Of a DNA stretch of 64,000 nt, positions 2,800-62,679 are shown in pieces. The notes under the pieces were generated by a model. It saw nothing but the letters and a program-made list of their open reading frames with translations, made no database searches and was not told the origin of the DNA. Source of the DNA: Vampirovibrionaceae bacterium NZW_1234 (GTDB taxonomy: Bacteria > Cyanobacteriota > Vampirovibrionia > Vampirovibrionales > JAGQHJ01). Made by a program: the position numbers and the translations under genes. Each line of letters opens with the position of its first letter. The stretch's first letter is position 1. Where the stretch lies: assembly GCA_041697335.1 (NCBI GenBank), contig JBGUGD010000002.1, positions 64,001 through 128,000 of the forward strand, given 5' to 3'.

Positions 2800-2803
2800 G
2801 TCT

Positions 2804-3478: not shown

Positions 3479-3699
3479 ATACGAGGGCTCCTTGGGCTTA
3501 TGAGGATAAGGGGGTGAGTCTACAACGTGACTGAAGAAGCAAAATTGCCTGCCTTTTTTTGAAATCCGACTACACTGTCCATGGGATTTGTGTCGGGGCC
3601 GGGTCCATTGCCTGAAGGAAATTGTGTGGCCGATCATGAAGATCAGGGGGCCAGAGACCGACACACCCGATACGTGGAAGAACAGTCATTCGAGAGACC

Positions 3700-12647: not shown

Positions 12648-14393
12648 TTAACTGGGGTAACGGGCATGGGCTTTCTTTGTATGATGATATAAGTCCTGTA
12701 AATGTAAAATGTTGTCAATGCTCAACACAGAACTTAACCCTTCGGGTAACTTGGGTGGTTGGCTGGCGACACCAAGTTCCATGTTGCGGGCGTGGATATA
12801 GCACTCGTTGAGATAGCGGTTGTAGAGCAGACGTTGCTCATCACTGAGAGCGTGAATGGCTGACTCAAAGGGTTTGAATTTTGGTTCTACAACCTTTTTG
12901 CCTGCGGGTGTGAGTTCACGATACAGGTCTTTTTTAATTCCGGCATCGTATGGCAGGTGCTCGGCATCTGCAATTCGGAGGGCGCGTTTTCCGATGATCT
13001 GGATCTCGCCGGTCACGCCATCGCCGTGATCCAAGTAGCCGCAGATGGAGGTAAACGGTGATTTGTCCGGTGCGGCTTCATAATTCCCCATTTTTACTTT
13101 CAGCCCTTTTTCGGCACAGGCGTCTTGAATGCGTTGCATGTGCTCCGGCGTGAAGTAGGGTTTTCCATTGGGCCCTCGCAGGTTATTCAACTGCTTGAGC
13201 TTGACCTTGCCATCGCGTATTCCTTTGACCAGCGCATCAACGACTTTGTTCATGCCTTCAGGCGTTGTATCTCCCACGACTAACCGGGAGCCCAGGGCGT
13301 CCCAGAGGTTATGGCGGGCTTGATCGACGGTGGTGATTTCTTTAATTTTCAGCGGTTGACCGTCTGCCCCGATTTTCACAGGATCCGTGGCCCACCCTGC
13401 CTCGACGGTACGTTGCAAGCGGTTGGCTCCTGAAACCGGCTTCTTGGCGCGAGCCTGGATCTCACCGAGGCCTGCAAAGACTTCCTGCATGACGGCCTTT
13501 TCAGCTGCCATTTTCTTTTCGAGTTGTGGATAAAGTTGCTCCATCAAGGCAATGACTTTCGGATCGCCCCCTTCTGCTACGGCAGGCGTGGTTTTCACTG
13601 CTGTTTCATTGGCCACGCGTGTGGTTTGTCCCTTGGTGGCTGTTTTGTTGGCAGCGGCTGTCTTGGTGACTTTTGCCGCTTGGAACTTGTGGACAACACC
13701 GTGAATGGTGCCACCCATGACGCCACCGCCAATGGCGCCTGCAACGATGGATGACACCCCAGCACTGTGGGCTTCACTCAGGTTCAGGCTGCCCGTCTTT
13801 TTGTAATTGTCATAGGCGCTATGGGCAAATCCGGAAATGTAGCCAATGGCAGCCCCATCTGCAGCCCCATGGGCAGCACCGCCCAGAATGGCTCGTTTCA
13901 GGGTTTGCTGGCCAATGGCTTTAACCGTAATCTCTTTGGTGGCTTCCTTGGTCAGCTGGATACCGAGGCGACTGGCTGCGGTCCCGGCTAATTTGCCAAA
14001 GCCGCCAGGAATGGCGCCAATGGCTGTATCGATCATAACCGTACCCCAGTCAATTTTGCCTGTAGTCAGCTTTTGATCTACGGCACTGGATACTCCTGAG
14101 GCTAAGGCCGCCGCTGCCATGGCCCCTGGCGGTCCACCTGCCAGTCCGCCGACAATGCCGGCACCGACGATGAAACCGATTTTGACAGCCTCTTTACCCC
14201 ATTTTAAATACCAGGGTGTGTTATCTTCCTGATGTTGCTGTTGCTGCTGTTGAACTCGTTGCGGTGCTACAGGTGGGCCAAATTGGTTGAGGCCCATGCC
14301 CGCATCGGGTTGACCGACTGCAAAAAGTCCTGGATTGTGTGGTGCCGCAAAAGGTGCATGCCCCGGAATGACGCGATTCCCTGCTCCTAACAA
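12648..14393 (-). CDS. Effector-like protein: glycine-zipper hydrophobic region plus RelA/SpoT-like synthetase domain
   Basis: Gly/Ala-rich hydrophobic helices (GFIVGAGIVGGLAGG, KIDWGTVMIDTAIGAIPGG). C-terminal RAKKPVS, DALGSR, GEIQI, AEHLPY. TTG start follows a GGGGGG RBS. Confidence 0.7.
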   Translation of the reverse strand: MLGAGNRVIPGHAPFAAPHNPGLFAVGQPDAGMGLNQFGPPVAPQRVQQQQQQHQEDNTPWYLKWGKEAVKIGFIVGAGIVGGLAGGPPGAMAAAALASGVSSAVDQKLTTGKIDWGTVMIDTAIGAIPGGFGKLAGTAASRLGIQLTKEATKEITVKAIGQQTLKRAILGGAAHGAADGAAIGYISGFAHSAYDNYKKTGSLNLSEAHSAGVSSIVAGAIGGGVMGGTIHGVVHKFQAAKVTKTAAANKTATKGQTTRVANETAVKTTPAVAEGGDPKVIALMEQLYPQLEKKMAAEKAVMQEVFAGLGEIQARAKKPVSGANRLQRTVEAGWATDPVKIGADGQPLKIKEITTVDQARHNLWDALGSRLVVGDTTPEGMNKVVDALVKGIRDGKVKLKQLNNLRGPNGKPYFTPEHMQRIQDACAEKGLKVKMGNYEAAPDKSPFTSICGYLDHGDGVTGEIQIIGKRALRIADAEHLPYDAGIKKDLYRELTPAGKKVVEPKFKPFESAIHALSDEQRLLYNRYLNECYIHARNMELGVASQPPKLPEGLSSVLSIDNILHLQDLYHHTKKAHARYPS

Positions 14394-27034: not shown

Positions 27035-28783
27035 TTAGAACAAGGCCGTGTCGATGCCAAAGTGCAACCGAGCACCTTGGCGAAAGGGCAACTGGCGAAG
27101 CAGTGGAAAGCCCACATCGAGGCGGCCGGAGATACGGTTGGTGATTTGCGAGCGGATCCCGAATCCGGTGGACAGGATGTGATCATTGCCATCAATGCCT
27201 GCCGGTGTATGGGTTGCATCTCCGTAAGCATAATCCACAAAGGTCAAGACAGAGGTGGTGTCTCTCATATCATGATCCGAGAACGGCAAGCGCCAGCCTT
27301 TGGGGATGAACTTGGCAGGGATTTGATATTGTCCGGTCAAAACGGCATAGGTATCGGCAAAGATGAAGACTTCCCGATAGCCTCGGCCGTAGAAGGTACC
27401 GCCGATACCGCCGACGTCAAAGTTGGATAACCCGTCCGGGCTGTATTGCCATTGGGTGTTCAAGGTAAAGCTGGCATCCAGAGGAAGCTGGCGGACCGCC
27501 GTGGCATACCCGGTATAGCGGAAGAACTGGCTACCGCCACGATACCAGGATAGTCTGGGATCGGTAGACAAGGAGCCGCTGAAAATCGGGACGGCTTGTG
27601 CCAGCTCGTGACGCATGGACAGGGTGGTTTTTTCCCATTTCTGGTCATAGTTAATGCCGCCCCGAAAGGTTCTGACGGCTTCACGTTCGATGGGGTCATC
27701 GTTGGAGCGGGTATTGGATTGCTTGAAGTCGAAGTTGATATCGGCACTTAAACGTCGGTCGGGTTTGTCGAGAACCACATAGCGTAAGCCGGGGGAAATC
27801 CGGTAGGCCATCCCGTCTGAGCCGAAACCGGTATAGGGAACATTATAAGGCTCAATATCTGCAAATTGGGCATCGACATAGGCTCTGAGCTGAGGCTTGA
27901 TGGGGATCTCGTAGCGGCTAAACACGCCCGTCGAGCGAAAGCCTCTGACGGCTGAGAGCATCAGTGAATCGCCGTGGCCGGTGATGTTATTGTGAACGGC
28001 CGTTAGTGCGCCGAAATAGCGCCCGAAGATGATCTGGTCCAAGTTGTTGCCGGAAGCCACAATGTGTAAGGGCTGCTTGTGCTCACTGGATGTGATTTTG
28101 ATCTTTGCCTTGTGGGTGAAGGGAATAACTTCCAGAGTCGAGGAAAAGGACAGATCCGGGTTGGCCTGGATGAGTCGCAATTGCTTTTCCACGAAGGGCA
28201 TGTCGATGGCGTCTCCTGTTTTTACGCCTCTTAAAAGGTGTGTCAGGAGTTTTTCCTGCCATTTGTCTTCTGCTTGAACCTCAACGGAATCCAACGCTAA
28301 CGGGGTGACTGCAATGTGAAGGACGTTTCCTTTCAGGGTCACAACCGCGTCGGACAAGTAGCCGGATTGTTGGGACTTTGTCAGGTAGCTTTGGGTGAGT
28401 TCTTTCACACTTTCGGTGGTCAAACTCTTCTGGCCTTCTACAACTTCCTTATCGCGTTTCATAATCGAGTTGTATTCAACTTCGACTTGGTCAACGCTAA
28501 TGCTGTTTGAGGTTTGTTCCGGGACATCAATGGAGGGTGGAGCCAATTTGGCTTCAAGTTCTTTATCGATGTAAATGGGATGAGGAATGCTTGAAAACGT
28601 GGGTGCATCCAACTTGATTTGAGGGCCATAGGTGCCGTAAATCAAGTTTGGTGTTGTCGACATGATGGGTAGTTCACTGGCAGTAAAGGGTTTGACCGCA
28701 TTTGGATCTGCATGAACCGTAGAACTCATCAACGTTATGGTTGCAGACAACCCCAATACACCCAACTTGGATTTCAAGCGCAT
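27035..28783 (-). CDS. ShlB/FhaC/HecB-family (TpsB) outer-membrane transporter
   Basis: Signal peptide, POTRA-like region, beta-barrel with GGTFYGRGY (VRGY-equivalent), C-terminal RLHFG...F. Confidence 0.8.
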   Translation of the reverse strand: MRLKSKLGVLGLSATITLMSSTVHADPNAVKPFTASELPIMSTTPNLIYGTYGPQIKLDAPTFSSIPHPIYIDKELEAKLAPPSIDVPEQTSNSISVDQVEVEYNSIMKRDKEVVEGQKSLTTESVKELTQSYLTKSQQSGYLSDAVVTLKGNVLHIAVTPLALDSVEVQAEDKWQEKLLTHLLRGVKTGDAIDMPFVEKQLRLIQANPDLSFSSTLEVIPFTHKAKIKITSSEHKQPLHIVASGNNLDQIIFGRYFGALTAVHNNITGHGDSLMLSAVRGFRSTGVFSRYEIPIKPQLRAYVDAQFADIEPYNVPYTGFGSDGMAYRISPGLRYVVLDKPDRRLSADINFDFKQSNTRSNDDPIEREAVRTFRGGINYDQKWEKTTLSMRHELAQAVPIFSGSLSTDPRLSWYRGGSQFFRYTGYATAVRQLPLDASFTLNTQWQYSPDGLSNFDVGGIGGTFYGRGYREVFIFADTYAVLTGQYQIPAKFIPKGWRLPFSDHDMRDTTSVLTFVDYAYGDATHTPAGIDGNDHILSTGFGIRSQITNRISGRLDVGFPLLRQLPFRQGARLHFGIDTALF

Positions 28784-29741: not shown

Positions 29742-32624
29742 TCAATCAAATGCTTGGGATACGAGTTGGTTTGAGGGATGAGCCTCCGGGAGTTGCCCTG
29801 ACGGGTGGAACATGGGGAGTTTGAATGAAAACGTGGATCCCTGGCCCACCTCACTGGTAAACCAGATTAAGCCGCCGTGAAGCTCAACCAGGTGCTTGGT
29901 GAGTGCAAGCCCCAGCCCTGTGCCTTCCTGGGTCTTGTTGGATGAGGAATCGAGCTGCTGAAAGGTTTTGAATAATTCACCATGCCTGGATTTGGGGATG
30001 CCTTCGCCGGTGTCCTCAACTTCCCCAATTACCCACAGGTTGTCCTCGGAGGGATAGAACCGGATGTAGACCTGGCCATGGGGTTTATTGAACTTGATTG
30101 CGTTACTGATCAAGTTGTAGAAGATCTGCTTCAGGCGGCTTGCATCGACATGGACCAGGGTCAGGCCGGGGGCAATGTCAAAATGAAGCTCGACATCCTG
30201 TTTTAAGGCCATGGCATCCAGAACCCCCTTGAGTTCATCGACCAGGGGCATCACGTCAACGGGTTCGATGGATAAGCGGAACTTGCCGGCTTCGATTTTG
30301 GAGAGGTCCAGAATGTCGTTCACCAGCGTGAGCAGGTGCTTGCCGCTACTGGTAATATTATCGATGTATCGGTGTTGTTTTTCATTCAGGGCGCCTGCCA
30401 GGCCATTATCGAGCATTTCGGAGTAGCCGATAACAGCGTTGAGGGGGGTTCTCAGCTCGTGGCTCATGTTGGCCAGAAATTGGCTTTTGCGTTTGTTGGC
30501 TTCCTCTGCGGCCTGCCGGGCTTGTTTTTCATTCTGGAACAGGTTGGATTGGTAGACAGCTACGCCGATATGCCGGGTAATGGTTTCCAGCAGGCGAATT
30601 TCTTCTTCGCTCCAAGTGCGTTCAAACTGGCATTGGTGAAGGACCAGACGGCCATAAGCTTCATCCCGGTAGGAGAACTCCATTACTACCACCGATTGGA
30701 CATTGTAGATTTGGGCATAGGTCCGGTACTCTTCCGGAAAGTCTTGGGGGGATGAGTACTGTACCAAAAAGCTCGGATGCGGGCTATCTTTCTGGGGTTG
30801 CAGGGTTTTTAGCAACCGTATAGGCAGGTCTTGTGCCTGCAGAGGCTGGATATTCTGTCGGCAGAATTGCTCGAAGAGTTGAAAATCAAGTGTCTCAGGG
30901 GTATCGGCGTTTTCGTAAAAGAAAAGGATGGCTCGATCGACATCGAGGTAGCGGCAGAGATCTTCCAATATGGAATAGATCGTGAAGCGGATGTCGAGGC
31001 TGTGGTTGATGGTTTCAACCACCTGGCGGACCAGGGTTTCCCGGTTCAGGGCAGCTTGTAGTTTTGAACGGGTCCGGGCGATATCGGAAATGTCGATTTC
31101 GACCCCCAGCATCCGATAGGGGGTTCCCGCACTGTCTCGCAGGGCGGCACCCGCCCCCAGCCAATGCATCAGATGGCCCTGGGCATGGCGGATCCTAAAT
31201 TCAACCTCAAACTTTTGATTCGGATCATTCAGGTGGGCGTGGATATGGGATTCTATCAGCGGGCGGTCCTCTTGGGCAACAAGGGAGATAAAGCCGTCAT
31301 AGCTGGGGGAGATTTCATCCGGGGACAAGCCAACCATGTCATAGAAGCGAGGACTCCAGTAGACTTCTCCTGTGATAAGATTCCAATCCCACACAGCGCT
31401 ATTGGTGGCGTCAATCACCATGCGGAACCGTTCTTCGGCTTCAATCAAGGCACGTTGGGCTTCTTTGAGCCTGGAGATGTCTAGCACAAAGCAGATGGTT
31501 TTTTCGGTGGAGCCTTCCAGAAAGGCAAAGCCGATGACGACATCCACGCGGCTGCCGTCTTTTCGGATGTATTGCTTGTCGTAAGGCGTACAGGAGCCTC
31601 GGGCCTGGAGTTCCCGGACCGCTTCATAATCTTTTTCCAGGTATTCCGCTGGGGTGATCTCATCCCAGCGAACGCGGCCCTCCAGGATCTCTTCTCGGGT
31701 ATAGCCTGTCATCTCTAGAACGGTCTCATTGGCATCCCAGATATTGCCGTGAACATCCGCAAAAAAGATGCCCATCAAGCCAGAGTCGGAAAGGCGTTTC
31801 AGATTGGCCTCACTCTGTTTTCGCTCGGTGATATCGGTAATGGCGCCAGCCATCCGGACTGGGTGACCCTGGACATCGCGAGTGGCTTTTCCTCTGCTGG
31901 TTAGGTACCGCAACGTTCCCGAGGGATGCTGGTAACGGAATTCCACGTCATACGGCTCGTTGCGCTCGAAATGGGATTCCAGGGCTTTCTGAATGAGGGC
32001 CTGATCGTCGGGATGGACGTCGTTTAAAAAGGCCTGGAAGGTTCGCTGGTCTTCCGGAATTGTGCGTCCGATGATCTCCAAAAACCGGGCGGACATATAG
32101 AGCTCGTTTTTCTGAATATCCCAGTCCCAAATCCCATCGGAGGCGCCCCAAATGGCAAGCTCGTAGCGCTCGGTTAACTGTTGAAGGCGTTGTTGTGCTT
32201 CCTGGAGTGCCGTGGTTCTCTCTGCAACTTCCTCTTCCAGTTCCTGTGTTGATTTCAGCTGAAGCGCTCTGGGGACGAGCCAAATCAAGGCAAATACGGT
32301 GGACCAGGAGACCAGGGCGGTGATGACATTGGCAACGGTCATCAGGCGATAAGCCGGCCACCAGAAGGCCAGCGCGTCCAGCATGTGGGTGGTGCCGCAG
32401 GCGAAGATAAAGGCGGCAAACATCAGGAGAATCCAGGGGTAGGGGAGCTTCTTGCCGCGCTTTCGGAAAAAGTAGACCAGGGTCAGGGGGATGGACATGT
32501 AGGCCGACCAGACCGCAAGGTTTGCCAGAATATAGGTCCATCCATGGGTGGGTGTCCACTGGCCGCAGAACCAGCGCGGGGGCCAGCCTTCGGTGTCGAT
32601 TAGGAAGTTCCAGAATTCAAACAA
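29742..32624 (-). CDS. Sensor histidine kinase: ethylene-receptor-like TM domain, 3 PAS, GAF, HisKA/HATPase
   Basis: AYMSIPLTLVYF and FIFACGTTH in the N-terminus; PAS repeats; SHELRTPLN H-box; NLISNAIKF, DTGEGI and GTGLGL boxes. Confidence 0.92.
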   Translation of the reverse strand: MFEFWNFLIDTEGWPPRWFCGQWTPTHGWTYILANLAVWSAYMSIPLTLVYFFRKRGKKLPYPWILLMFAAFIFACGTTHMLDALAFWWPAYRLMTVANVITALVSWSTVFALIWLVPRALQLKSTQELEEEVAERTTALQEAQQRLQQLTERYELAIWGASDGIWDWDIQKNELYMSARFLEIIGRTIPEDQRTFQAFLNDVHPDDQALIQKALESHFERNEPYDVEFRYQHPSGTLRYLTSRGKATRDVQGHPVRMAGAITDITERKQSEANLKRLSDSGLMGIFFADVHGNIWDANETVLEMTGYTREEILEGRVRWDEITPAEYLEKDYEAVRELQARGSCTPYDKQYIRKDGSRVDVVIGFAFLEGSTEKTICFVLDISRLKEAQRALIEAEERFRMVIDATNSAVWDWNLITGEVYWSPRFYDMVGLSPDEISPSYDGFISLVAQEDRPLIESHIHAHLNDPNQKFEVEFRIRHAQGHLMHWLGAGAALRDSAGTPYRMLGVEIDISDIARTRSKLQAALNRETLVRQVVETINHSLDIRFTIYSILEDLCRYLDVDRAILFFYENADTPETLDFQLFEQFCRQNIQPLQAQDLPIRLLKTLQPQKDSPHPSFLVQYSSPQDFPEEYRTYAQIYNVQSVVVMEFSYRDEAYGRLVLHQCQFERTWSEEEIRLLETITRHIGVAVYQSNLFQNEKQARQAAEEANKRKSQFLANMSHELRTPLNAVIGYSEMLDNGLAGALNEKQHRYIDNITSSGKHLLTLVNDILDLSKIEAGKFRLSIEPVDVMPLVDELKGVLDAMALKQDVELHFDIAPGLTLVHVDASRLKQIFYNLISNAIKFNKPHGQVYIRFYPSEDNLWVIGEVEDTGEGIPKSRHGELFKTFQQLDSSSNKTQEGTGLGLALTKHLVELHGGLIWFTSEVGQGSTFSFKLPMFHPSGQLPEAHPSNQLVSQAFD

Positions 32625-45174: not shown

Positions 45175-45489
45175 TCGGTTTTTAGAATGACTGTGCTTTG
45201 TTCACTGCCTCTGGATTGTTACGGGCTTGAGTTCCGCTGCCCGGACTTGTGCCATTAAATAGGCACTGAGTGAATCGTTGTTTGTCTTCTTGCGATGGGA
45301 TTGACTTTCCTGGTCAAACAGGGACAATGGAAGTCAATTGAGACTACCCAACAGAGAGCATAATCTAGCGCTGCTTGCGCCTTGTCCTCAAGGGTTTAAT
45401 GCCGGGTTACTGGCTTGGACTGCCCGTATGGCCGGGTTGCTATCTGGATAAGAGAGCAGTTGCCTTTTAAACAAGAGGTTAATGGTATC

Positions 45490-47352
45490 GTGATTGGACG
45501 GATAAAGCGATTTTTACTGGGTGCCCCTTTGGCAACCCATGCCGAAGAGCATCAGCGACTGAACGTGCCATTAGGTTTGGCTGTTTTTTCCTCCGATGCC
45601 TTATCTTCCACCGCCTATGCCACGGATGAAATCTTGCTTGCCTTGGCCGCTTCTACCTTTGCGGCCAGCGGAAATCTGTTGTCTTTGCCTGTGGCCCTGG
45701 CCATTTCAGTTTTGATCGCGATTGTGATTATTTCCTATCGCCAGATTATCCGGGCAAACCCACAGGGCGGTGGGACCTACATGGTGGCCAAAAATAACCT
45801 TGGGGTGGTGCCGAGCCATATCGCTGCCGCTTCTCTGCTGATTGACTATGTGTTGACCGTGTCCGTTAGTATTACGGCAGGGATTGCGGCGATTACTTCT
45901 ACAGGGATCCTGCCCCACGCCCAGGTCACCAGCCTATCCATTATCGCAGCCCTGATTATTATGCTGATGAATTTGCGGGGTTTGAAAGAATCCGGTAAAG
46001 CATTTGCCTTTCCGGCTTACACATTTCTGTTCAGCATGGGGGCGCTTATTTTTACCGGGATTTACAAAGCGGTCACCCAGGAACACGTTAATTTGGGGTC
46101 TTTTACCACCAGTGCTACCCATTTGACAGATACCACCGGCGGGGATCTCATTAATTTGACGTTGATTCTGGTCTTGTTAAAGGCATTTTCCCATGGCTGT
46201 GCCGGTCTTACGGGGATTGAGGCCGTTGCAGACGGGGTCAAAGCGTTTCAAGATCCGGCCCCAGCACGGGCGAATAAGACGATGGCCGTGATGGGGATTT
46301 TGTTGATTTCCATCTTCTTGAGCATTACGTTTTTGGCGTTTTCATTCCATGTGATGCCCAAGGCCGATGAAACGATTATTTCCCAGGTGGCTCGCGCCGT
46401 TTTTGGGGGCGGCACATTTTTCTACATGCTGGTTCAGTTTTCAACCATGATTCTGCTGGTGCTGGCCGCTAACACGGCATTTGCAGATTTCCCGAGGGTC
46501 GCCAGCTTTTTGGCAAATGATGGGTATTTGCCACGCCAGATGATGAACCTGGGCGATCGCCTTGTTTATAACAACGGTATTATGCTGCTCAGCCTCTTGT
46601 CGATTTTCTTAATCTGGTTTTTTCAGGGCAATACACACTCGCTGATTCCGCTATATGCTGTAGGCGTATTTATTTCGTTTACTTTGTCGCAATCCGGTAT
46701 GGTGCTGCACCACCGTCGTGTTCGTGAGCCCGGCTGGAAGCAGGGGGCTTTTATCAATGGCTTTGGTGCTGTGATTACGGCATTTGTTAGCATCATATTA
46801 GCCTTTGAGAAATTCACGGAAGGGGCCTGGATTATCTTTGTGGCTATTCCGTTGATTATGTGGATGTTTCGGGCGATTAAGCGGCACTATCTGTCTGTGG
46901 CTCGCCAGTTGGTATTGCCGGAGGACTCCGCCTACTGCCCAGTTGGTGTCGAGCATACGGTCTTGGTCCTGGTTTCGTCTTTAAATCGTGGCACCATTCC
47001 GGCGTTGCAGTATGCGCAAAGCATTTCCGGCCGAGTGGAAGCGGTTCATGTGAAAGTGAACCCACAAGCGACAGAGCGGCTTCAGAAGGCCTGGGAGAAG
47101 TGGGGCTGTAATATGACCCTGACGATCCTGGATTCACCGTATCGTTCTATTCATGAACCTTTGTTGGACTACATTACCGAGGTTGAAAAACGTCACGAGC
47201 ACGATTTGGTCACGATTGTTATCCCCGAATTTGTTACCAAACGCTGGTGGCACAACCTCATGCACAATCAATCCGCCATTTTTATCAAGACCCTGCTGCG
47301 CCAACAAAAGGGGAAAGTCGTCACGACAGTGCGCTATTATCTCGAAGAGTAG
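45490..47352 (+). CDS. APC-family permease, KimA/YdaO-like (probable K+/H+ symporter)
   Basis: FSSDALSSTAY, GGGTY, LTGIEA, NTAFADFPR, LIPLYAVGVF, cytoplasmic SPYRSI..PEFV..WWHNLMHNQ. Confidence 0.9.
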   Translation: MIGRIKRFLLGAPLATHAEEHQRLNVPLGLAVFSSDALSSTAYATDEILLALAASTFAASGNLLSLPVALAISVLIAIVIISYRQIIRANPQGGGTYMVAKNNLGVVPSHIAAASLLIDYVLTVSVSITAGIAAITSTGILPHAQVTSLSIIAALIIMLMNLRGLKESGKAFAFPAYTFLFSMGALIFTGIYKAVTQEHVNLGSFTTSATHLTDTTGGDLINLTLILVLLKAFSHGCAGLTGIEAVADGVKAFQDPAPARANKTMAVMGILLISIFLSITFLAFSFHVMPKADETIISQVARAVFGGGTFFYMLVQFSTMILLVLAANTAFADFPRVASFLANDGYLPRQMMNLGDRLVYNNGIMLLSLLSIFLIWFFQGNTHSLIPLYAVGVFISFTLSQSGMVLHHRRVREPGWKQGAFINGFGAVITAFVSIILAFEKFTEGAWIIFVAIPLIMWMFRAIKRHYLSVARQLVLPEDSAYCPVGVEHTVLVLVSSLNRGTIPALQYAQSISGRVEAVHVKVNPQATERLQKAWEKWGCNMTLTILDSPYRSIHEPLLDYITEVEKRHEHDLVTIVIPEFVTKRWWHNLMHNQSAIFIKTLLRQQKGKVVTTVRYYLEE

Positions 47353-53800: not shown

Positions 53801-55546
53801 ATGCCTTCTTTTGTAATGCTTTTTAAACCCAAATACCGGTTTATGCTGGTCTCGGGGGTTGTAAGCGCCTCTGTTTTTTTAGTCGCAAACGTGTCGATAT
53901 GGGCACAAGTTCCTACTCAGGCTAATCCGGGTGTTTTGCTGCCTGCACCTACTGTGCAGGTGCGTCAAGAGCAGCAGCAGACCCAATCAAAGTCACTACC
54001 TTCAACACAAAACACGCCAGAAAAAACAACGTTGGATCGGCCGGACGATTTATCTTCCGTGGCCATTCCTGAGGTCCGGTTTTACCTGGACAAACTGATG
54101 GTTGAGGGCAGTACGCTTCTGTCATCAAAAGATTTGGAAGCACTGATGGCGCCCTATGAGAAGCGAGAAGTTACTTTTGACGATCTGAATCAGGCAGCGG
54201 CCAAGTTGCGGGCGTATTATCACGACAAAGGGTATTTCACCACCTATGTATTTATTCCCCCCCAGGACGTGGATGACGGGATCCTTCGTATCAAGGTCCT
54301 GGAAGGCCGCCTTGGGAAGCTATCAGTAGACAAGAATCGATATTATCGGGATTTTGTCGTTACACGACAGTTTCGGGCCAAGGCGGGCCAATTGTTTAAT
54401 TACAAAACCTTTGAAGAGGATATTAATTTAGCCAATCAACTGGCTCCGTACCAGGTGAAGGCTGTTCTGAATAAAGGAGAGCATTCTGGAGAAACCGACA
54501 TTACGCTCAATGTGGTTGATAAGCAGCCATGGCAAATTTCGTTAACCGGCGATAACCAAGGACGCCCCTTTATTGGGATGTATCGCGGCGGCGTTGATGT
54601 TACCAATCAAAGTTTGCTGGGACTGGGTGATCGCCTTTTTACCCGGTATTATGGGGCCTCCGGAACACAAGTGGTGATGGGATCCTACAGTGTTCCAGTT
54701 AACCGTTTTGGTGATGAGGTTAGTGTTAACTACAGTTACAGCCATGTTGATGTTGACTTAGGCTTGAATGTTCCCCAACAACCCATTGTAGGGACCGCGA
54801 AAAGCTATGGCATCGCTTATTCTCACCCTCTCAATAAAAAACGTTCGCTGGTGTCCGATATCGGGCTCAATCTGCGGACGATTGATTCCCGGGTTGATAG
54901 TACACGCGTTAGCCATGACGAAATTCGAACCCTTCAGGCCGGAATCTCGTTTAATGAATCCGATCGCCTGGGCCGAACATCGGGGCGTTTGCAGCAGACG
55001 GTGGGCATCGGGTTTTTGGGCGGAAACCGGCAATTTTTCAAGTCTGAAGCCATGGTCACCCGCTTATTGCGACTTTCTGAATCAAATACCTTGATTTTAA
55101 AAGGCTATGGCCAGCTGACACCCGATGCGCTGCCCACCGCCGAAGCCTTTCAGATTGGCGGCGCTTACAGTGTTCGAGGCTATACAGAGGGGCTGTTGAT
55201 TGCAGATCGGGGATTTTCGTTCAGTGCGGAAGATCGGTTTCCCATTCCATTTTTAAGCCGCATATCCCCCAAGATGAACAATCGGTTACAAGGCGCAGCC
55301 TTTTTTGATGTGGGGCGGGTGTGGCTGGATTCCAGCAACTCCCGTTTCGGTGCAGCATCGAATCAGGCGAAGAATTCACTTCTAATGAGTGTCGGTGTTG
55401 GCGTTCGTGCTCGACTGACCCGCTTTGTTCAGGGCTTTGCCGATTTGGGGGTGGGTTTAGGGGACAGAAACGGCGTAACCCGTCCCAACGGCGATCCGAC
55501 GGTACGGCTTCACTTTGGGCTTCGTTCCAACCTGCTGCCTGAATAA
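53801..55546 (+). CDS. ShlB/FhaC/HecB-family (TpsB) transporter
   Basis: POTRA (YYHDKGYFTT..IPPQDV.DG.L.IKVLEG), DNQG, FQIGGAYSVRGY, C-terminal RLHFG. Confidence 0.92.
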   Translation: MPSFVMLFKPKYRFMLVSGVVSASVFLVANVSIWAQVPTQANPGVLLPAPTVQVRQEQQQTQSKSLPSTQNTPEKTTLDRPDDLSSVAIPEVRFYLDKLMVEGSTLLSSKDLEALMAPYEKREVTFDDLNQAAAKLRAYYHDKGYFTTYVFIPPQDVDDGILRIKVLEGRLGKLSVDKNRYYRDFVVTRQFRAKAGQLFNYKTFEEDINLANQLAPYQVKAVLNKGEHSGETDITLNVVDKQPWQISLTGDNQGRPFIGMYRGGVDVTNQSLLGLGDRLFTRYYGASGTQVVMGSYSVPVNRFGDEVSVNYSYSHVDVDLGLNVPQQPIVGTAKSYGIAYSHPLNKKRSLVSDIGLNLRTIDSRVDSTRVSHDEIRTLQAGISFNESDRLGRTSGRLQQTVGIGFLGGNRQFFKSEAMVTRLLRLSESNTLILKGYGQLTPDALPTAEAFQIGGAYSVRGYTEGLLIADRGFSFSAEDRFPIPFLSRISPKMNNRLQGAAFFDVGRVWLDSSNSRFGAASNQAKNSLLMSVGVGVRARLTRFVQGFADLGVGLGDRNGVTRPNGDPTVRLHFGLRSNLLPE

Positions 55547-55686
55547 TTCGCGCATCACCCGGTATTTTCTTAAAAAGTGGGTAGCAACATTTTTCTTAAG
55601 ATTGTTTTTATATTTATAAGGTTATATGTGTATCGTTCATGCCCCATAGGATGGGCATGCTGAGTTAGGAGGCATTTGCCGAGCGT

Positions 55687-56166
55687 ATGAATGTGACAGC
55701 CAAGACAACCGATGTGCCGAGAACCAATTCGGCACCGCTGAGCAAGCCGGTCGAATCCAAGTCAACCTCTGCTCAAGGGTCCGGGACGGCCAAGGCGACG
55801 ACCTCAGCAACCACGACTCCGCAAAGTCGGGAAGAGCGCATTAAGGATTTGGAATCTCAAATCGATAAGATGAAGTCGACGCTGGAATCCTTCAAATCCT
55901 TGGCCGCTAAGCAAACACAAGCGCCTAAGCCTGCACAGGGCCAATCATTGCAATCTGGAAATGCACTATCGTCCTTGCTACCATTTTCGAACTTGTCCTT
56001 CTCCTCGAATCAGCGGCAGCCCTCGCTGTTTAATCCGGAGAATGCCGGTGGTTTCCAGGTGGATCCCTTCTTTTTGCAGTCCAAGCCCAATCCTTTTGGG
56101 GCCGGTGAGAGTCTGATTGTTCAGGTTCTGCCCTATGGTGTTGAGCCTTCCGGTGGCGGCGAATAA
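55687..56166 (+). CDS. Hypothetical protein (disordered plus short coiled coil)
   Basis: AGGAGG upstream; REERIKDLESQIDKMKSTLE coiled coil. Confidence 0.65.
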   Translation: MNVTAKTTDVPRTNSAPLSKPVESKSTSAQGSGTAKATTSATTTPQSREERIKDLESQIDKMKSTLESFKSLAAKQTQAPKPAQGQSLQSGNALSSLLPFSNLSFSSNQRQPSLFNPENAGGFQVDPFFLQSKPNPFGAGESLIVQVLPYGVEPSGGGE

Positions 56167-56285
56167 TTGGATTGTTGAAACCGCCTGACATGCGCAGCGG
56201 GCAGCGACGTTACAAAGTGTAACAGTTTTTGTACCTGATATCTTCAAGGATAGTCAGGGATGTGTTTTTGCGGTAATCTGCATTT

Positions 56286-56476
56286 TGGTAAGTAGAGGTG
56301 CAGTTTCCAAGAGTATGCTTATCCCAGACGGTTGAACGTCGTAACGAGGGTAAGACGAAAGGGGAAACCTGCCGAAACGATAAGCCCATTCAACGGGGTG
56401 CATCGTTGGTCGATGAGGCTAAATCCTCCCGACTGTCTTGAAAGACTTCCGGGTCTTTCAAGGAGCGCTATTGCCA
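56286..56476 (+). ncRNA. Lysine riboswitch (L-box)
   Basis: Signature elements in order: AGAGGTGC, AGTA (loop E), GAAAGG, GCCGAA, TTGG, TAAATC, ACTGTC, GGAGCGCTA. P1 pairing TGGTAA-g-TAG / CTA-TTGCCA; P5 hairpin TTGAAAGAC / GTCTTTCAA. Confidence 0.9.
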
Positions 56477-56572
56477 CCGGTAGGACTTTTTCTCAGGGTC
56501 CTTGTGAACGGTGAAGGCGTTTTACTTGCCTTCAGAGTCCCCCCTCAACCGTTCCCCTGATAGGTCCCGCTG

Positions 56573-58510
56573 ATGTCCCTCGACATTTCTCCAGCACCAA
56601 TCCGAATGACTCCCCCTCGGGTGTCGGGTGTTGTGGTGCCACCGCAACATTCAGGGCAACAGCATCGCCAGGTGTCTTCGCCGCGTTTTGGCAACGGGCT
56701 GATGAACGGGGCGGATCGCTTTGTCAGTTGGTTTGTGCGGAATTTATACGATCGGGGGGAAGGGTTTCGGTATCTCGTTGAGCAGACCTTGGGCTATACG
56801 GCTCCCCGCACGATTCAGCAATTAAACCGCACTCGCTCCATTACGGGTAAAGGCAATGAAATGGCTGCCCAGGAAATGTTGATTCGGGACTTGGCTGCCG
56901 ATTTCACCGATACCATCCTGCCAGGACTGATTGCCACGTTCGGTGTTGGCTGGGTCATGGATCGGATGGGTAAAACTCTGTTGCAACGTAATATGGGGCA
57001 TGATGCGCTGGCTTTTTATCAGCATATGGCCCGGGGTGCCAAAGGCGCCGCTGTCAGCCAAGCCGAGTTTTATCAGGGCATTGAAACCCGACTCACCGAC
57101 TTTGCCAAAGCCTCGAAGGCCACACCGGCAAAAGCGTTGAATTTGAAAGCGCTCATCAACGAGATGCGCAGCAGCAAGCATATTGAGGATGTGGAAAAAA
57201 CCATCGCCACGCGTTTAGGCCTGAGCCACTATGACGTTAAACTGGCCTATGGCAATAAGAAGCATTTGGAATTGCCCTTGCGGGATTTGGTCAAAGATCT
57301 GTGGCATATTCGCCAAGGCGTAAAAACGTCCAATGTCGGCAATGCCTGGGGCAAAGAAGCGCTCGCCATGGTCCAAAAAACGGCCGGTAAAATGAAGTGG
57401 CAAATGCTTGGCAATGTGGCGGCATTGGTGGCCAGTATCAGCATTCCCTTTGTTGTGCGACTCATTACAAAACGCGTCTATGGCAAAGATGCATTTCCGG
57501 GGACCAAGGAATTGGAAGAGCACTTTAAAACCCCTGAGGCAAAGAAAGCCCAGGATTCCAAGCGATTTGTCTGGTTTCCCTATCTTCAGGAGACCCTGAA
57601 AAACGGTAACTGGACACCGCTGGCCATCACGGCTGGGTTTTTTGCCGTTCTGGGTGGTGTGGTGCTGCGCCGGTTTCATTTGGCCAAAGGCAGCATCTTC
57701 CGATTTAAAGACTGGGTCAAAGTCTATGAGTTTCAGCGTCACTTTCCGTTTACCACCGTGACCCAGATGGAGCTGACCTATGGACTGTTATGCGGCATGC
57801 GTCTTGCAGCCAGCCGGGATCAGGCCGAGTTTCGTGAAACGGCAATCCGTGACTGTCTCCTGGGTTGGCCCACGTTGACCTACTTCTTCCCGATGTTTCG
57901 CAAGTTCTTAAGCCAGCAGTTTAACCAGCGCTTTTTGACCAAAAAGTTTCGCACCCCCAATTTGCTCATCAAGCCTAATGGCGAGGTTCGAGGCAGTCAT
58001 GAAATGACCCCGGAATTATTTAAAACCATGGGGCTGGGAGCAAAAGCAAGCACTGCCGTTCAGTCTGCCAAAAAATATCAATCCTGGATTACGTTTATTT
58101 CAGCGCTGACATCGTGGGTGATGTTGGCCTTTGCGGAGCCTCAGTTGGGTATTTGGCTCACCAACTCATTGGAGTTGCGGCGCTTAAAAGGGCTGTCGCA
58201 GCAGAAAGGGCAGGAAGCATCAACAGCAACTTCCCAGAGCCAAGAGAATCAGGAACCGCTTGAAGGATCAAAGCCATCTCATGCATCCCAACGTTGGGCG
58301 ACCGAATCACTGGCTGAGCTGGACCACCATCAGCCCGCAGTGATGTCCATGCCTGCCATAACGCCACTTCAGTCTGCTTATGAAGCCAACACAAATGGCT
58401 ATTCGATTTATCCTGCAGGTAATTGGGCTTCTGCCTGGAATGGTTGGCAGCCCATTCCTTATACCCCTGCAGCATATTCCCAGGCCTCGTATCCACATTA
58501 CGCATCATAA
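56573..58510 (+). CDS. Hypothetical multi-TM protein with SPRFG leader, downstream of the lysine riboswitch
   Basis: 645-aa ORF with ~5-6 hydrophobic segments; no family recognised. Confidence 0.8.
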   Translation: MSLDISPAPIRMTPPRVSGVVVPPQHSGQQHRQVSSPRFGNGLMNGADRFVSWFVRNLYDRGEGFRYLVEQTLGYTAPRTIQQLNRTRSITGKGNEMAAQEMLIRDLAADFTDTILPGLIATFGVGWVMDRMGKTLLQRNMGHDALAFYQHMARGAKGAAVSQAEFYQGIETRLTDFAKASKATPAKALNLKALINEMRSSKHIEDVEKTIATRLGLSHYDVKLAYGNKKHLELPLRDLVKDLWHIRQGVKTSNVGNAWGKEALAMVQKTAGKMKWQMLGNVAALVASISIPFVVRLITKRVYGKDAFPGTKELEEHFKTPEAKKAQDSKRFVWFPYLQETLKNGNWTPLAITAGFFAVLGGVVLRRFHLAKGSIFRFKDWVKVYEFQRHFPFTTVTQMELTYGLLCGMRLAASRDQAEFRETAIRDCLLGWPTLTYFFPMFRKFLSQQFNQRFLTKKFRTPNLLIKPNGEVRGSHEMTPELFKTMGLGAKASTAVQSAKKYQSWITFISALTSWVMLAFAEPQLGIWLTNSLELRRLKGLSQQKGQEASTATSQSQENQEPLEGSKPSHASQRWATESLAELDHHQPAVMSMPAITPLQSAYEANTNGYSIYPAGNWASAWNGWQPIPYTPAAYSQASYPHYAS

Positions 58511-58787
58511 AGGTTTCTAACGAATGCGTTGATTCAAAAACTCTTGCTTCAATTGGATTAAGATTAGGAGCAAGCTCAAGAATATGGTCACATCATCCTA
58601 TTGGGAATTGTATGCCATAACAAACATTTTAAATTCGGGCAAGCCCCTCCGGTCTAGGTTCAAGATTCAGACTGGAGTTTGATCCAAGACACCGATTTGA
58701 AGTGTTACAGTATTAACATACAAGCCCAACCCCCCTGGCCCCGTGCCTAAGATAGAGAAGAAGACGTAAGAGAAGGGAGAGGAATCA

Positions 58788-59000
58788 ATGACACCTGCTG
58801 CTTTTTCACAGTACCAAACGAATCGTGATCTGGAACGCCAGGTCTATGACTGTGTCATGCAAGGCCTCACCTGTGATGGTATTGCCCAAAGGCTTCAATT
58901 GGACCCCGTTTTAACCCGTCAGCTGGTCAACCATATCCTGGCCAAACTGTGCCTGGATACGGGTGTGAAACAAGCGTTGACATCCCTTTGGGCCTATTAA
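58788..59000 (+). CDS. Small LuxR-type HTH protein
   Basis: LERQVYDCVMQGLTCDGIAQRLQL...VNHILAKL resembles the LuxR/GerE HTH; strong purine-rich RBS. Confidence 0.7.
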   Translation: MTPAAFSQYQTNRDLERQVYDCVMQGLTCDGIAQRLQLDPVLTRQLVNHILAKLCLDTGVKQALTSLWAY

Positions 59001-59065
59001 CTTTAAACCCGGTAGACACACAACACTCATTCTCTCAGTAGACACATCAACCTCATCCAGAATCC

Positions 59066-59097
59066 CGCAAAGACCTGACCGTCTTTGCGTTTTTTTT
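59066..59097 (+). terminator. Intrinsic terminator
   Basis: CGCAAAGAC-ctgacc-GTCTTTGCG followed by a T8 run. Confidence 0.85.
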
Positions 59098-59271
59098 GGA
59101 AGGCCTTTAAATTGGGGGGCTTTAAAAATGCGTCAAGGCTGTCGTTGTTTTTAGCTGTTAATGATTCTTTAACGCACCGATCTTTTAGATTTTGACTTTA
59201 TATACATGTGTGTGTAGTCCTTCGATGTAGCTGCCTGAGGTGGCTACGGTGATTCGCTATGGAGTTGTGGT

Positions 59272-62200
59272 ATGTTGAATGATTTTCTGGCGTCGACGTT
59301 GCCCTTGAAAACGGAAAAGCGGAGTCGGGATGGCGTGGTGGATCTGTCGATCCGCCCGAGAAAAGATTCTTCAACACTCGATTTATTAGCGCTGGGTATG
59401 GATTCCCCTATGGATGAAGCTGACACGGGCTTTTCCGGTGGTGGTATTCCCACTCTGCCGGAGGATAAACCGCGTACTTCACGTCGAGGTGTAATGCCCT
59501 GGGTGGCTCGTAATTATAATAATGCCTTGGTGTCGAATGGGCCGGTCATGTTTGTTAATAATGTTCCTGCCGATGACAAACCCCAGAAAACCAAGCCGCA
59601 AGTGCAACGGGAATTTCTGCAAAACATTTATCAGGTTATTGGTATCTGGAATCGGCGGATTGCTGCTCTTGAAAATCATATTGAGACAGTGATGCCTGGA
59701 AAAATTAAGGTAGCACAGGCCAGAGTAACTGAACTATCAAAAGATGCCGACTTTGTGGCGTTTCCTGCACGTATGAAAAAACTGCAGGACATTGATGAGC
59801 AGATTGCAGCTCTCATGGAAGAGGCCTCTGGGCTTCGAGAGAAACAGGTCACCGATGGCCTTGGGTCGGGTAAAAGTAAAAATCAGATCCGTCGCGAAGA
59901 GATTCAAAAAGAAGTTCTGGAGCTTCAGGTAAAGCGCCGTAAGCTTTGGCCAGATGTCATTAAAAGCCAACAGGCCATGATCAATGTTGAAAAAGCAAAA
60001 CAGGATGTTAAAGATTTGGAATCCCAGATTCCCTATTTTAAAAAGGATCTGGAGGTTTACAAGAAAGCCGTTGAGGAATTAGGTACAGCTGAAAAAGGCA
60101 AGCTCAAGCTCAAGGGTAATCCATTTAAGATGGATAAAGTGGATCAGGAGGTCCTGGATGTCATCAATAATTTTGCCAAGAACAGCAAACGCTATGATCC
60201 CAGTGAACTCCTTGAAGCCTTGGCTGGCAAAGGAATTCTGAGCGATTCTCACAATCTTTATGTTCGCTATCTGCGAGGAAGCACGATTTCAGATCGTGAT
60301 ATTGCGTTAAACGGTGTTCACGATCACAAACGGGCAGGTGAGCTGCGTATCCGTAGCTTGGAAGCCGATTTGAAAACCTTGCAGCGGCGTCAGGCTAATG
60401 ACGAAACAGATTTGGCGATTCCCAAGGGCATTAAAAAAGACGGCTCCATTCCCATGACGGAAGCTGAGCTAGAGGCACTTGAGGAGATGGCCAGTGTTTA
60501 TGTGAACTTGATTGCTCTCTATAAGTTCAATCCCATCCACGGCAGTATCCTGATGGCGGACTTGTGGGATATGAACAGCCGTATGATGAATGGGAACCCT
60601 TCAACCAATATGCTCAAGCTTTTTGGTGAAGCGGTGAAAGACTATGCCAAATCCGGTAAGGTCGTGGAAGATGCGGCCGAAGGATTCATTATGGGGTTGG
60701 TCTTTCGCGGTGCGGCTGCCGTTGTCGGCGGTCCTGTTGTGGCGGTTGTGGGTGCCATTATGATGGCGGTTATGGCGGGTGGCCTCCGTAACAAGCTTGA
60801 ATCCATTATCAATATGACCCGAAACGTGGATGACACGATTCTGGATGGCGATAGTGACGAGGTTAAAAAGAAGAAAAACGACCTCTTTACCCAACGCCAG
60901 GCCAAGGCTATGAAAGAGTTTATGCAGCACGATGTGATTCCGATTCTGCCGCAGTTGCTGGGTGGCCTGGGTGCCGGAAAGATTGGTGCCAAAGGAAAAA
61001 GCCCGGTTCTTGCCGATGCGAGCCGTCGTGCCAACTTTGCAGGCGAGAAAGCCAAAATTGCTCGGGGGCGGGCAACAGCGCTTGAGGCTGAGGCCGCTCG
61101 TGCAAAACGACTGGCTGATACCTCGAAAAGTCCGCAGGATATTGCTCGTGCCAACCGACTCGCTGAAATTGCCGAACGTCTGAAAAAGGCTGCCACGGAA
61201 GCAGAAACCAAGGCGGCGGATGCCAAGTCCAAGTTGCCGGAATTGGCGGAAGCTGTTAAAGAAGCTGAAAAGGCTACAAAAGAATATATGCGGGCCAAAA
61301 AATCGGGCAACAGGCCTGCCCTGGAAGCGGCTGAAGCCAAGCTGAAAGCGGCTATGGAAAAGGTGCAGCGTCTCCAGGATACGGTCGGCAGAAACAATAA
61401 AGTGCGGGCAATTGACGAAGCCCAACTTTCCGAGGGCAATATTGATATTCGTGCCAAAAACCAGAAACCGATGAGTTTATCCGAGGCGCCGCCCGATTCT
61501 CCGATGCGGACGGCCATGGAAAAAGCCGGTTTGTCTGAAGAGCAGGCCAAATTGATTGATCTCGAGTTTATTAGCTCAAACGAATCACCTTCATGCCAAA
61601 TGAAAAGTGATCGAATCAAAATCAAGCTGCCCAAGAACCCTGATGGAACGGTTCGGATTACGGATCTGGCGCATGAGCTGGCGGAAGCCAAAATGCGGCT
61701 TGAGGCTAAGACAAATCCCAAACTTGCGACGCAATTGGCTGAGGCTGAGCGCTTGGCGAAACGATACCAGGATGCTCAAAAAGCTTACCGGGAGGCCTTA
61801 GAAGAAGTGGGCAATCCAGAGGCTGTTCCTGAAAATATTCGTCAACAACTGGCGGAGGCTCGTTTTGCTTATGAAAACAGCCCCACGGAACTTCGGGCCA
61901 GAGCCGTCGAAATGGAGGCCTTGTCCAAACATGCTGAAAAATCATTTGATGCCACAGGGGGTGTCGATGAAAATCTACTCAACCTAACGGCCGAAGCCGG
62001 TGAGCAGGCTGCCAATTTAAAAACACGCCAACGGGCCATGGAACGATTCCGAGACGCCAGATCCGTTGAGGCTTTAGAAGCCGCTGAAGCCGAATTAACC
62101 AATGCCGGATACACGGATACGGAATTAGGGTTGCTCAGGACCTTAAAGGGCCTGCGCTCGGGTCTGATGTTCCCTGCCAATGCTACCGGGCCTCAAATTG

Positions 62201-62679
62201 CGTCTGCGCTAGGCGGTGAGTACGTAAAAACCGAATGGGGCGTTCACCAGATAAAAATGCCGGATGGCTCCTATCGTTTATATCCGGCATCCGAGGTGAC
62301 CGCAAGCAATCCGAAACGGGCGCCTAAATTGAAAACGGTCGATGCCAAAACCGCTAGTAATAGCGAAGCATTAGCCAAGGCTGCGAAGGATTGCCTGCGT
62401 GAAGCCTTGCCCACGGAGGCGGAGATCATCAGCTATTTGGAATCGCAAGGTTGGGAAGTCCGTGTGCATAGTGCGGGGAAGCATGGGAAGAACTATATTG
62501 CCACACGAGACGGTAAAACCAAGTATTTCTCCGTAGATAAAGGTAATCAGGGCAGTGGCGGTGATGCCGGTATTCCGCACCAGGGGACCAAGGGCGGAGT
62601 CGTTAAACTGTTTCCCGATGATTCGTATAATTTTGATAAACGCAAATATGGGACCGTTGATTTGGATCCGCTTAAATAA
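59272..62679 (+). CDS. Large coiled-coil polymorphic-toxin/effector-like protein with TM hairpin and C-terminal Ntox21-like domain
   Basis: Coiled coils; hydrophobic GFIMGLV...AGGL; AHELAE..ELRA; C-terminal KYFSVD..H..GGVVKLF..KYGTVDLD. Confidence 0.7.
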   Translation: MLNDFLASTLPLKTEKRSRDGVVDLSIRPRKDSSTLDLLALGMDSPMDEADTGFSGGGIPTLPEDKPRTSRRGVMPWVARNYNNALVSNGPVMFVNNVPADDKPQKTKPQVQREFLQNIYQVIGIWNRRIAALENHIETVMPGKIKVAQARVTELSKDADFVAFPARMKKLQDIDEQIAALMEEASGLREKQVTDGLGSGKSKNQIRREEIQKEVLELQVKRRKLWPDVIKSQQAMINVEKAKQDVKDLESQIPYFKKDLEVYKKAVEELGTAEKGKLKLKGNPFKMDKVDQEVLDVINNFAKNSKRYDPSELLEALAGKGILSDSHNLYVRYLRGSTISDRDIALNGVHDHKRAGELRIRSLEADLKTLQRRQANDETDLAIPKGIKKDGSIPMTEAELEALEEMASVYVNLIALYKFNPIHGSILMADLWDMNSRMMNGNPSTNMLKLFGEAVKDYAKSGKVVEDAAEGFIMGLVFRGAAAVVGGPVVAVVGAIMMAVMAGGLRNKLESIINMTRNVDDTILDGDSDEVKKKKNDLFTQRQAKAMKEFMQHDVIPILPQLLGGLGAGKIGAKGKSPVLADASRRANFAGEKAKIARGRATALEAEAARAKRLADTSKSPQDIARANRLAEIAERLKKAATEAETKAADAKSKLPELAEAVKEAEKATKEYMRAKKSGNRPALEAAEAKLKAAMEKVQRLQDTVGRNNKVRAIDEAQLSEGNIDIRAKNQKPMSLSEAPPDSPMRTAMEKAGLSEEQAKLIDLEFISSNESPSCQMKSDRIKIKLPKNPDGTVRITDLAHELAEAKMRLEAKTNPKLATQLAEAERLAKRYQDAQKAYREALEEVGNPEAVPENIRQQLAEARFAYENSPTELRARAVEMEALSKHAEKSFDATGGVDENLLNLTAEAGEQAANLKTRQRAMERFRDARSVEALEAAEAELTNAGYTDTELGLLRTLKGLRSGLMFPANATGPQIASALGGEYVKTEWGVHQIKMPDGSYRLYPASEVTASNPKRAPKLKTVDAKTASNSEALAKAAKDCLREALPTEAEIISYLESQGWEVRVHSAGKHGKNYIATRDGKTKYFSVDKGNQGSGGDAGIPHQGTKGGVVKLFPDDSYNFDKRKYGTVDLDPLK

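Follow-up and report, generated by a model that had tools for sequence, protein, structure and literature searches.

With few exceptions, riboswitches act on genes whose products synthesize, transport or use up the ligand that the RNA senses, and among the lysine riboswitches (L-boxes) known so far the majority switch biosynthesis or uptake genes OFF, as stated in parts of PMC5584792. The L-box-regulated transporters named in the same parts are lysP/gabP, lysW (NhaC superfamily), yvsH, and lysXY; L-box control of transporters in lysine prototrophs is described there for lysP, lysW, yvsH, and lysXY, and hypothetical genes have been classed as transporters on the strength of their linkage to an L-box. 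A passage of PMC2258182 mentions lysine riboswitches of the ON type. In the accessible portion of the text and supplements of PMC5584792 no cyanobacterial or melainabacterial entry is found, and a full-text search covering few subscription journals gives no report of an L-box in Melainabacteria, and the papers retrieved for Vampirovibrio and those listed for cyanobacteria are, judged by title or abstract, on other subjects. Here we describe an L-box and the gene behind it in a stretch of 64,000 nucleotides (the window) from Vampirovibrionaceae bacterium NZW_1234 (assembly GCA_041697335.1, contig JBGUGD010000002.1, positions 64,001 to 128,000). The gene encodes a 645-residue helical membrane protein and, as judged from sequence comparison, riboswitch and gene are one conserved unit.

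A cmscan search of the whole window against Rfam 15 yields three matches above threshold: two tRNAs and the Lysine riboswitch (RF00168, 81.7 bits, E = 8e-20). The RF00168 alignment comprises model positions 1-182 of 182, is untruncated, and lies far above the gathering score of 30. It bears out the well-formed L-box that the initial annotation had recognized by eye; the position given there stood as well, and the distance to the open reading frame (ORF), estimated at about 96 nt, is measured at 94 nt from the aptamer end to the ATG at 56573. In an alignment of nine orthologous aptamers, compensatory (double-sided) changes are found at 22 of 37 consensus pairs, and the core motifs AGAGG[CU]GC, AA[AG]GG, UGCCGAA, and GG[AU]G[CUA]GCU are near-invariant. 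Judged by these features, the L-box is a genuine lysine riboswitch aptamer. It is the single L-box in the genome of this cyanobacterial relative, which is not photosynthetic (3.70 Mb, 41 contigs, 94.75% complete).

The pairing of RNA and gene is retained across genomes. An orthologue of the membrane protein (E≤1e-90) occurs in 8 of the 49 genomes of the order, one copy each; the same 8 genomes carry an L-box, again one each (seven by genome scan and one, G017, by cmscan), and the remaining 41 are without either. A metagenome contig (L022, L-box with 68.4 bits) adds a ninth case. At all nine orthologue loci with an L-box the riboswitch is located just upstream on the same strand, which answers the earlier question whether homologues also follow amino-acid riboswitches. 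Within a collection of species representatives, all four loci encoding a relative have an upstream L-box on the same strand (93.7, 58.0, 48.9, and 73.5 bits), and a sample of 151 genomes of the class has an L-box in five genomes under a strict filter and in a sixth, G017, at 48.9 bits by cmscan. Paralogue loci are different: no riboswitch is found at any of 26 (6 + 20).

The evolutionary range of the pairing was assessed with a FastTree phylogeny of 57 rows, comprising the 38 proteins of alignment A1 (the query and 37 homologues) and 19 proteins from loci (midpoint-rooted, SH-like support only, the more remote paralogues omitted). A clade of 50 rows contains L-box loci from its deepest branches (L013/L014 and L015) up to its crown, and the genes without L-box form one derived, long-branch subclade (support 100). 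The simplest history would therefore be an ancestral pairing of RNA and gene with one loss. Conserved neighbours are not found: a tblastn search with five neighbours from the window against 16 loci gives no match at 1e-3, and by Pfam the 18 annotated genes next to orthologues differ from locus to locus, except for a convergent APC permease in L004 and L005. Since the flanking genes are not shared between orthologue loci, it is the RNA and the gene that are conserved. Around the paralogues (54 of 77 neighbours scanned), only the convergent atpA/atpG genes of one family (f7, see below) and one AsnC/Lrp regulator stand out, without a functional lead.

The protein itself largely matches its initial description. 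The ORF of 645 codons is confirmed, and the count of about five to six hydrophobic segments is fair: a Kyte-Doolittle profile (19-residue window, threshold 1.2) shows four clear segments (Table 1), and two additional conserved helices (residues 396-412 and 428-443) are amphipathic. The latter belong to the most conserved module, with the consensus QMELTYGLLCGxRLAxSRDxxEFRETxIRDCLLGWPTLTYFF. An AlphaFold2 model built on A1 is confident (mean predicted local distance difference test score, pLDDT, 81.6; predicted template modelling score, pTM, 0.75; 401 residues with pLDDT of at least 90). The predicted structure is all-helical over residues 41-563, with long helices of 38-65 residues and a small beta hairpin at residues 221-235. 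The ends, residues 1-40 and 564-645, have pLDDT <50 and are taken as disordered, in keeping with the leader bearing the tetrapeptide PRFG and the disordered tail described before. Prediction of a homodimer (residues 60-555, two copies) gives ipSAE values of 0.02 and 0.00, which is neutral on oligomerisation.

Searches of Pfam and NCBIfam at E≤1 return only sub-threshold noise (DNA_pol3_delta_C, 0.097; phnR_burk, 0.03). The hidden Markov models (HMMs) of AA_permease and AA_permease_2 do not match the ORF at E≤1, nor do those of LysW/NhaC, LysE, LysO, and ABC (ATP-binding cassette) lysine transporters in Pfam or NCBIfam. The ORF is hence, as was noted by eye, unlike the known L-box-regulated transporters, and no LysW/APC-type carrier is recognized in it. 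The window does contain a true AA_permease_2 gene (45415-47352, E = 1.2e-27), which also encodes 645 residues; kinship between these two ORFs was considered and rejected.

The initial annotation called the ORF an orphan, which proved incorrect. A search of 5.8 billion proteins gives the 37 homologues of A1 with 34-54% identity, 73-93% query coverage, and E-values from 2e-174 to 8e-77; all are unnamed or 'hypothetical', one of them from the metagenome-assembled genome 'Cyanobacteria bacterium HKST-UBA03'. A profile search with A1 against 1.84 billion proteins extends this to 330 cluster representatives at E≤1e-3, with the roughly 22 closest representatives (E≤1e-129) clearly set apart from all others (E≥1e-82). 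A scan of 80 distant representatives, taken from the 150 listed of these 330, found no Pfam match at E≤1e-3. The ESM Atlas places the protein next to 30 clusters, none with a common Pfam family, and the three clusters shown consist mostly of Candidatus Melainabacteria. MTP18, seen in 33% of one Atlas cluster (score 0.78), and GAD, at 12% (score 0.85), were rejected as chance leads. The superfamily is apparently specific to Melainabacteria, and the protein family is new in sequence and, going by searches with the whole predicted model, apparently also in fold.

We note that the wider superfamily is common in family f7 of the class, where it is present in 27 of 32 genomes. The paralogues there (loci L049-L059) form tandem pairs by HMM in 6 of 11 loci, and the remaining 5 have an adjacent ORF of 545-583 aa without family; in 6 of the 11 loci the paralogues are convergent to atpA/atpG. 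A paralogue without riboswitch in G017 has a regulator of the AsnC/Lrp type (L060:2192-2686) directly upstream on the same strand, a weak and single hint that amino acids may be a theme of the wider family.

Residues that separate the L-box-linked proteins from their paralogues were identified by comparing 38 rows of the riboswitch clade with 7 rows of the paralogue clade and 38 more distant rows. Position 110, within the first hydrophobic helix, is D in 38 of 38 rows of the riboswitch clade and I in 7 of 7 rows of the paralogue clade; further such positions are listed in Table 1. These clade-invariant polar or charged residues sit in hydrophobic or amphipathic helices. In P0029-31, proteins of the subclade without L-box, D110 is changed to G and D113 to N. 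Buried acidic residues would be expected where a cationic amino acid is bound, and D110 and E400 may thus be candidate binding residues for lysine. Lysine synthesis, in turn, is retained: this genome has both lysA and dapA, and across the order lysA occurs in every genome (49 of 49), in 46 of them above the curated cut-off. Lysine auxotrophy, which the initial annotation had proposed to check for, is therefore not the reason for the switch, and this explanation is rejected.

The spacer between aptamer and ATG was analysed with RNAfold. In the minimum free energy (MFE) fold, a long-range helix is formed by 56478-56498, directly 3' of P1, and 56555-56572; it encloses a nested hairpin (56506-56554). 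The 3' strand of the helix contains a weak Shine-Dalgarno-like AGG together with the four bases preceding the ATG, and this AGG is paired with GGACUU (56483-56488) in the predicted MFE structures. Both spacer hairpins that had been pointed out before, GAAGGC/GCCTTC (56513-56518 / 56528-56533) and AACGGT/ACCGTT (56507-56512 / 56548-56553), are present in the sequence. By a simple consensus scan the spacer (56479-56572) contains no terminator-like site, in agreement with the earlier remark that a clear U-tailed terminator is missing. The first strong intrinsic-terminator-like site 3' of the ORF is located at 59066-59089 (9-bp stem, then T8) and is likely the end of the transcription unit. A scan of the same kind with a sigma-70 consensus finds no promoter-like site on the + strand of 55500-59400, and hence none between RNA and ORF. 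Constraint folding of four leaders, with either the aptamer enforced or the 5' strand of P1 blocked, predicts a mostly paired start region in all four (unpaired probability 0.17-0.44).

A real L-box, a conserved pairing, and a protein of no known family together make a new lysine-related membrane function the sensible reading; to this extent the earlier proposal of a new lysine-acquisition protein stands. We tentatively favour, at slightly less than an even chance, a membrane transporter or channel that is repressed by lysine and belongs to a new family. According to this reading, the lysine riboswitch in the 5' leader would control a single gene, whose helical product would be inserted in the inner membrane of the producing cell itself. 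Synthesis of the protein would proceed at low cellular lysine and stop once lysine is bound to the leader, the OFF logic presumably acting on translation initiation. Lysine would be the substrate, most likely taken up by the cell, with D110 and E400 as candidate binding residues.

Several results weigh against a lysine transporter or channel under OFF control. The protein is basic (78 K+R vs 51 D+E) and has only 4-6 hydrophobic segments in 645 residues alongside large polar helical parts, and in these respects is unlike secondary carriers with 10-14 transmembrane segments. No sequence similarity to any transporter is found in Pfam, NCBIfam, or PDB sequences, a PDB sequence profile search giving a best E-value of 2.2. 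Structural searches with the model are likewise negative: Foldseek against the PDB with the whole 645-residue model returns no match at E≤1e-3 (TM ≤0.17), so that the proposed combination of AlphaFold and Foldseek results in a confident helical model without PDB fold match, and VIA-align against 48,161 representative chains reaches a best Z of 5.8 over 73 residues, which is below the noise level of the method for helical models. The thermodynamic modelling shows no P1-dependent change in the accessibility of the start site in any of the four leaders. In addition, the expression platforms differ between genomes, and two genomes of low GC content have 450-550 nt between the aptamer and the start of the ORF. 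The OFF logic is therefore assumed: translational OFF control is taken over from precedent, and Rho- or RNase-dependent control, or ON logic, may apply instead. Two metagenome loci with four genes (L023, at 1825-5659, and L024; homologues with 38-40% identity), which hold tandem duplicates, are without an L-box even at E≤1. Finally, the PxFG leader is found on many soluble enzymes too and hints at a sorting step that an ordinary inner-membrane permease does not need.

A first alternative is a lysine-regulated membrane protein with a job other than transport, such as an envelope, cell-wall, or signalling component that is required to a varying degree as the supply of lysine changes. The architecture unlike known carriers is in line with this alternative, as is the observation that the paralogues, and with them most of the superfamily, have neither riboswitch nor metabolic neighbours; amino-acid transport need therefore not have been the original function of the fold. 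On the other hand, the rule that riboswitches almost always serve genes handling their own ligand (stated in the parts of PMC5584792 cited above) disagrees with it, and both the strict one-to-one co-occurrence and the buried charges particular to the clade suggest a role tied to the ligand. We consider a non-transport function rather unlikely.

A second alternative reverses the logic: the protein would be a lysine exporter under an ON-type riboswitch, made at excess and relieving overload with lysine or thialysine. Riboswitches with ON logic for lysine are reported in the cited passage of PMC2258182, an overflow is conceivable as all genomes of the order make lysine, the modelled leaders show no P1-coupled rearrangement that would fix the direction of switching, and buried acidic residues suit a cationic substrate in either direction. 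However, the precedent of OFF switches on biosynthesis and uptake genes in PMC5584792, in the parts cited, runs counter to an exporter, the start site is paired also with the aptamer enforced, which fits OFF better than ON, and the protein lacks similarity to the LysE and LysO families. An exporter under ON control is, in our view, doubtful.

A third alternative, which develops the exported channel or permease of the initial annotation, is an exported membrane-active protein whose PxFG leader would serve as an export tag, maybe read by either of two flagellar-type export machines, and which upon lysine starvation would form a pore in a prey, host, or outer membrane and let out lysine or other nutrients. 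The motif deserves attention in its own right. In a crude set of ORFs of this genome (non-overlapping, at least 100 aa, most upstream start each), P[RK]F[GQ] occurs within residues 1-80 in 46 of 3077 ORFs and in the next three 80-residue windows in 7 of 2556, 3 of 1961, and 1 of 1393 ORFs, and is thus enriched at the N-terminus. The codons vary among the cases, therefore the motif is conserved at the protein level. It follows a polar leader without signal peptide on unrelated enzymes and unknowns: among 19 other bearers scanned, 10 have a Pfam domain and 9 do not, the domains being AAA ATPase, DUF885, amylase/CBM48, NUDIX, acyltransferase, trypsin-like peptidase, FHA, isochorismatase, adenosine deaminase, and sigma-70 region 4. 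Within the superfamily, P-x-F-[GQTKR]-G is found in nearly all rows of A1 and in every N-terminus of a paralogue inspected, and the three superfamily members of this genome all carry the motif or a near variant. We regard PRFG as a candidate for a lineage-specific sorting, export, or processing signal; a full-text search, with subscription journals mostly outside it, found no literature on such a motif. A PRFG-type motif is also present in the window ORF at 2804-3664 (-).

For an exported protein speak, besides the N-terminal enrichment and the presence in every superfamily member inspected, a set of bearers that resembles an effector set, a disordered leader without signal peptide, and the long helices with few, moderately hydrophobic segments. 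There are also two FHIPEP (FlhA-type) genes (G000:C2:99188-101164 and G000:C32:11558-13534, locus L069), the second of which clusters with an ATPase of the T3SS (type III secretion system) type, FliH, FliF/YscJ, and FlgB/C/F/G-like rod genes of a flagellar-type core. Against export, several families of the class usually have two FHIPEP copies, and of the 30 genomes of family f6, 29 have FHIPEP but none has the superfamily; the distribution of FHIPEP does not track the superfamily. Furthermore, VirB4 of type IV secretion systems is not found in the genome, the gene is located outside any secretion locus and lacks a chaperone-like gene beside it, f7, in which the superfamily is common, is a family in which predation is presumably not to be expected, and a single-amino-acid riboswitch would be an odd trigger for attack. 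We give this alternative little credence. Its most specific form, in which the protein would belong to a large set of Melainabacterial proteins with a PxFG export tag and would be secreted, possibly via one of the two flagellar-type gates, as a pore for another cell's or the outer membrane, so that the lysine riboswitch gates a nutrient-harvesting effector, is very unlikely.

Few approaches can assign a ligand to a family without known relatives, and riboswitch linkage is among them; the L-box ties lysine to one clade of a 'dark' superfamily of 330 clusters. If lysine is indeed moved by the protein, the latter would found a new family of transporters or channels whose fold has no match, and would provide the first functional handle on the whole superfamily. 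The locus further extends the L-box to a lineage for which no report was found, and the L-box regulon is here a single non-biosynthetic gene, with lysA kept by all of these organisms. An undescribed sorting signal may be present in the PRFG leader, which this protein shares with 45 other ORFs.

Table 1. Positions of the riboswitch, the membrane-protein gene and its segments in the window, clade-specific residues, and loci with an L-box.
Feature	Position	Strand	Basis
L-box aptamer, full five-helix model	56285..56478	+	RF00168 match
Expression platform, without U-tail	56478..56572	+	RNAfold MFE
Weak Shine-Dalgarno-like AGG, 8 nt before ATG	56562..56564	+	sequence
ORF, 645-aa helical membrane protein, ATG start	56573..58510	+	ORF call
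Disordered N-terminal leader, residues 1-40, ends in PRFG	56573..56692	+	pLDDT <50
PRFG, residues 37-40	56681-56692	+	sequence
Hydrophobic helix 1, residues 107-129, with D110 and D113	56891..56959	+	hydropathy
Hydrophobic helix 2, residues 280-298	57410..57466	+	hydropathy peak 1.82
Hydrophobic helix 3, residues 347-365	57611..57667	+	hydropathy peak 1.81
Most conserved module, residues 396-443, amphipathic	57758..57901	+	alignment A1
Hydrophobic helix, residues 503-521, then conserved EPxxGIWxTN	58079..58135	+	hydropathy, alignment A1
Disordered C-terminal tail, residues 564-645, variable in A1	58262..58510	+	pLDDT <50
Terminator-like site	59066..59099	+	consensus scan
Position 400: E in riboswitch clade, A in paralogues
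Positions 402, 403, 404, 407: T, Y, G, C in riboswitch clade; C/L/M, F, A, I in paralogues
Positions 426-427: R-D in riboswitch clade, D-S in paralogues
Positions 433-436: P-T-L-T in riboswitch clade, x-x-W-I in paralogues
Nine L-box loci: window, L002, L003, L004, L005, L013, L014, L015, L022

The neighbours of the gene are a transporter of the TpsB type, an ORF of 159 aa, and a coiled-coil ORF of 1135 aa. The last (59272-62679, +) is located directly downstream of the unit, is rich in coiled coils, and has no family and one stretch of hydrophobic residues around residue 490. An ORF of 70 aa (58788-59000, +) with weak sub-threshold HTH-like matches is located between the terminator-like site and the membrane-protein gene; it is not conserved at orthologous loci and may or may not be a gene. 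Two-partner-secretion transporters of the ShlB/FhaC type (POTRA_2 + ShlB) are encoded at 53801-55546 (+) and 27035-28783 (-), with no obvious TpsA partner identified for them; a further ORF of the same length, 581 aa, lies at 12648-14393 (-). The window also encodes a histidine kinase of 960 aa (29742-32624, -) with an N-terminal ETR1_N domain (ethylene-receptor-like, E = 1.6e-31), followed by PAS and GAF domains.

Three groups of known systems can be compared with this locus. Translocators of the T3SS (SctE/SctB, e.g. IpaB/YopB) presumably resemble the protein in their disordered N-terminus, long helices, and few hydrophobic segments. The likeness extends to the missing signal peptide and to the tandem pairs of the f7 paralogues. 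Unlike these translocators, the ORF has no Pfam match, fold match, secretion locus, or chaperone neighbour. The lysC leaders of B. subtilis and E. coli share with the window a five-helix aptamer with a conserved core in the 5' leader of a gene. In contrast to L-boxes of the lysC type, the one described here precedes neither lysC, dap, lysA, nor a known transporter, and its leader has no recognisable terminator or P1-coupled sequestor; its host lineage, Melainabacteria, also sets it apart from known L-boxes. From the L-box transporters, namely LysP/GabP (APC, COG0833), YvsH (COG0531), LysW (COG1757), and LysXY (ABC), the protein differs in the lack of a sequence match at E≤1 in Pfam and NCBIfam and in its 4-6 hydrophobic segments, compared with at least 11 in the carriers (LysW has 11, according to the cited part of PMC5584792). 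Large soluble helical parts, the PxFG leader, and the disordered tail are further differences from these carriers. Common to both are a membrane protein encoded behind an L-box, the arrangement as a single cistron, and a host that is a lysine prototroph.

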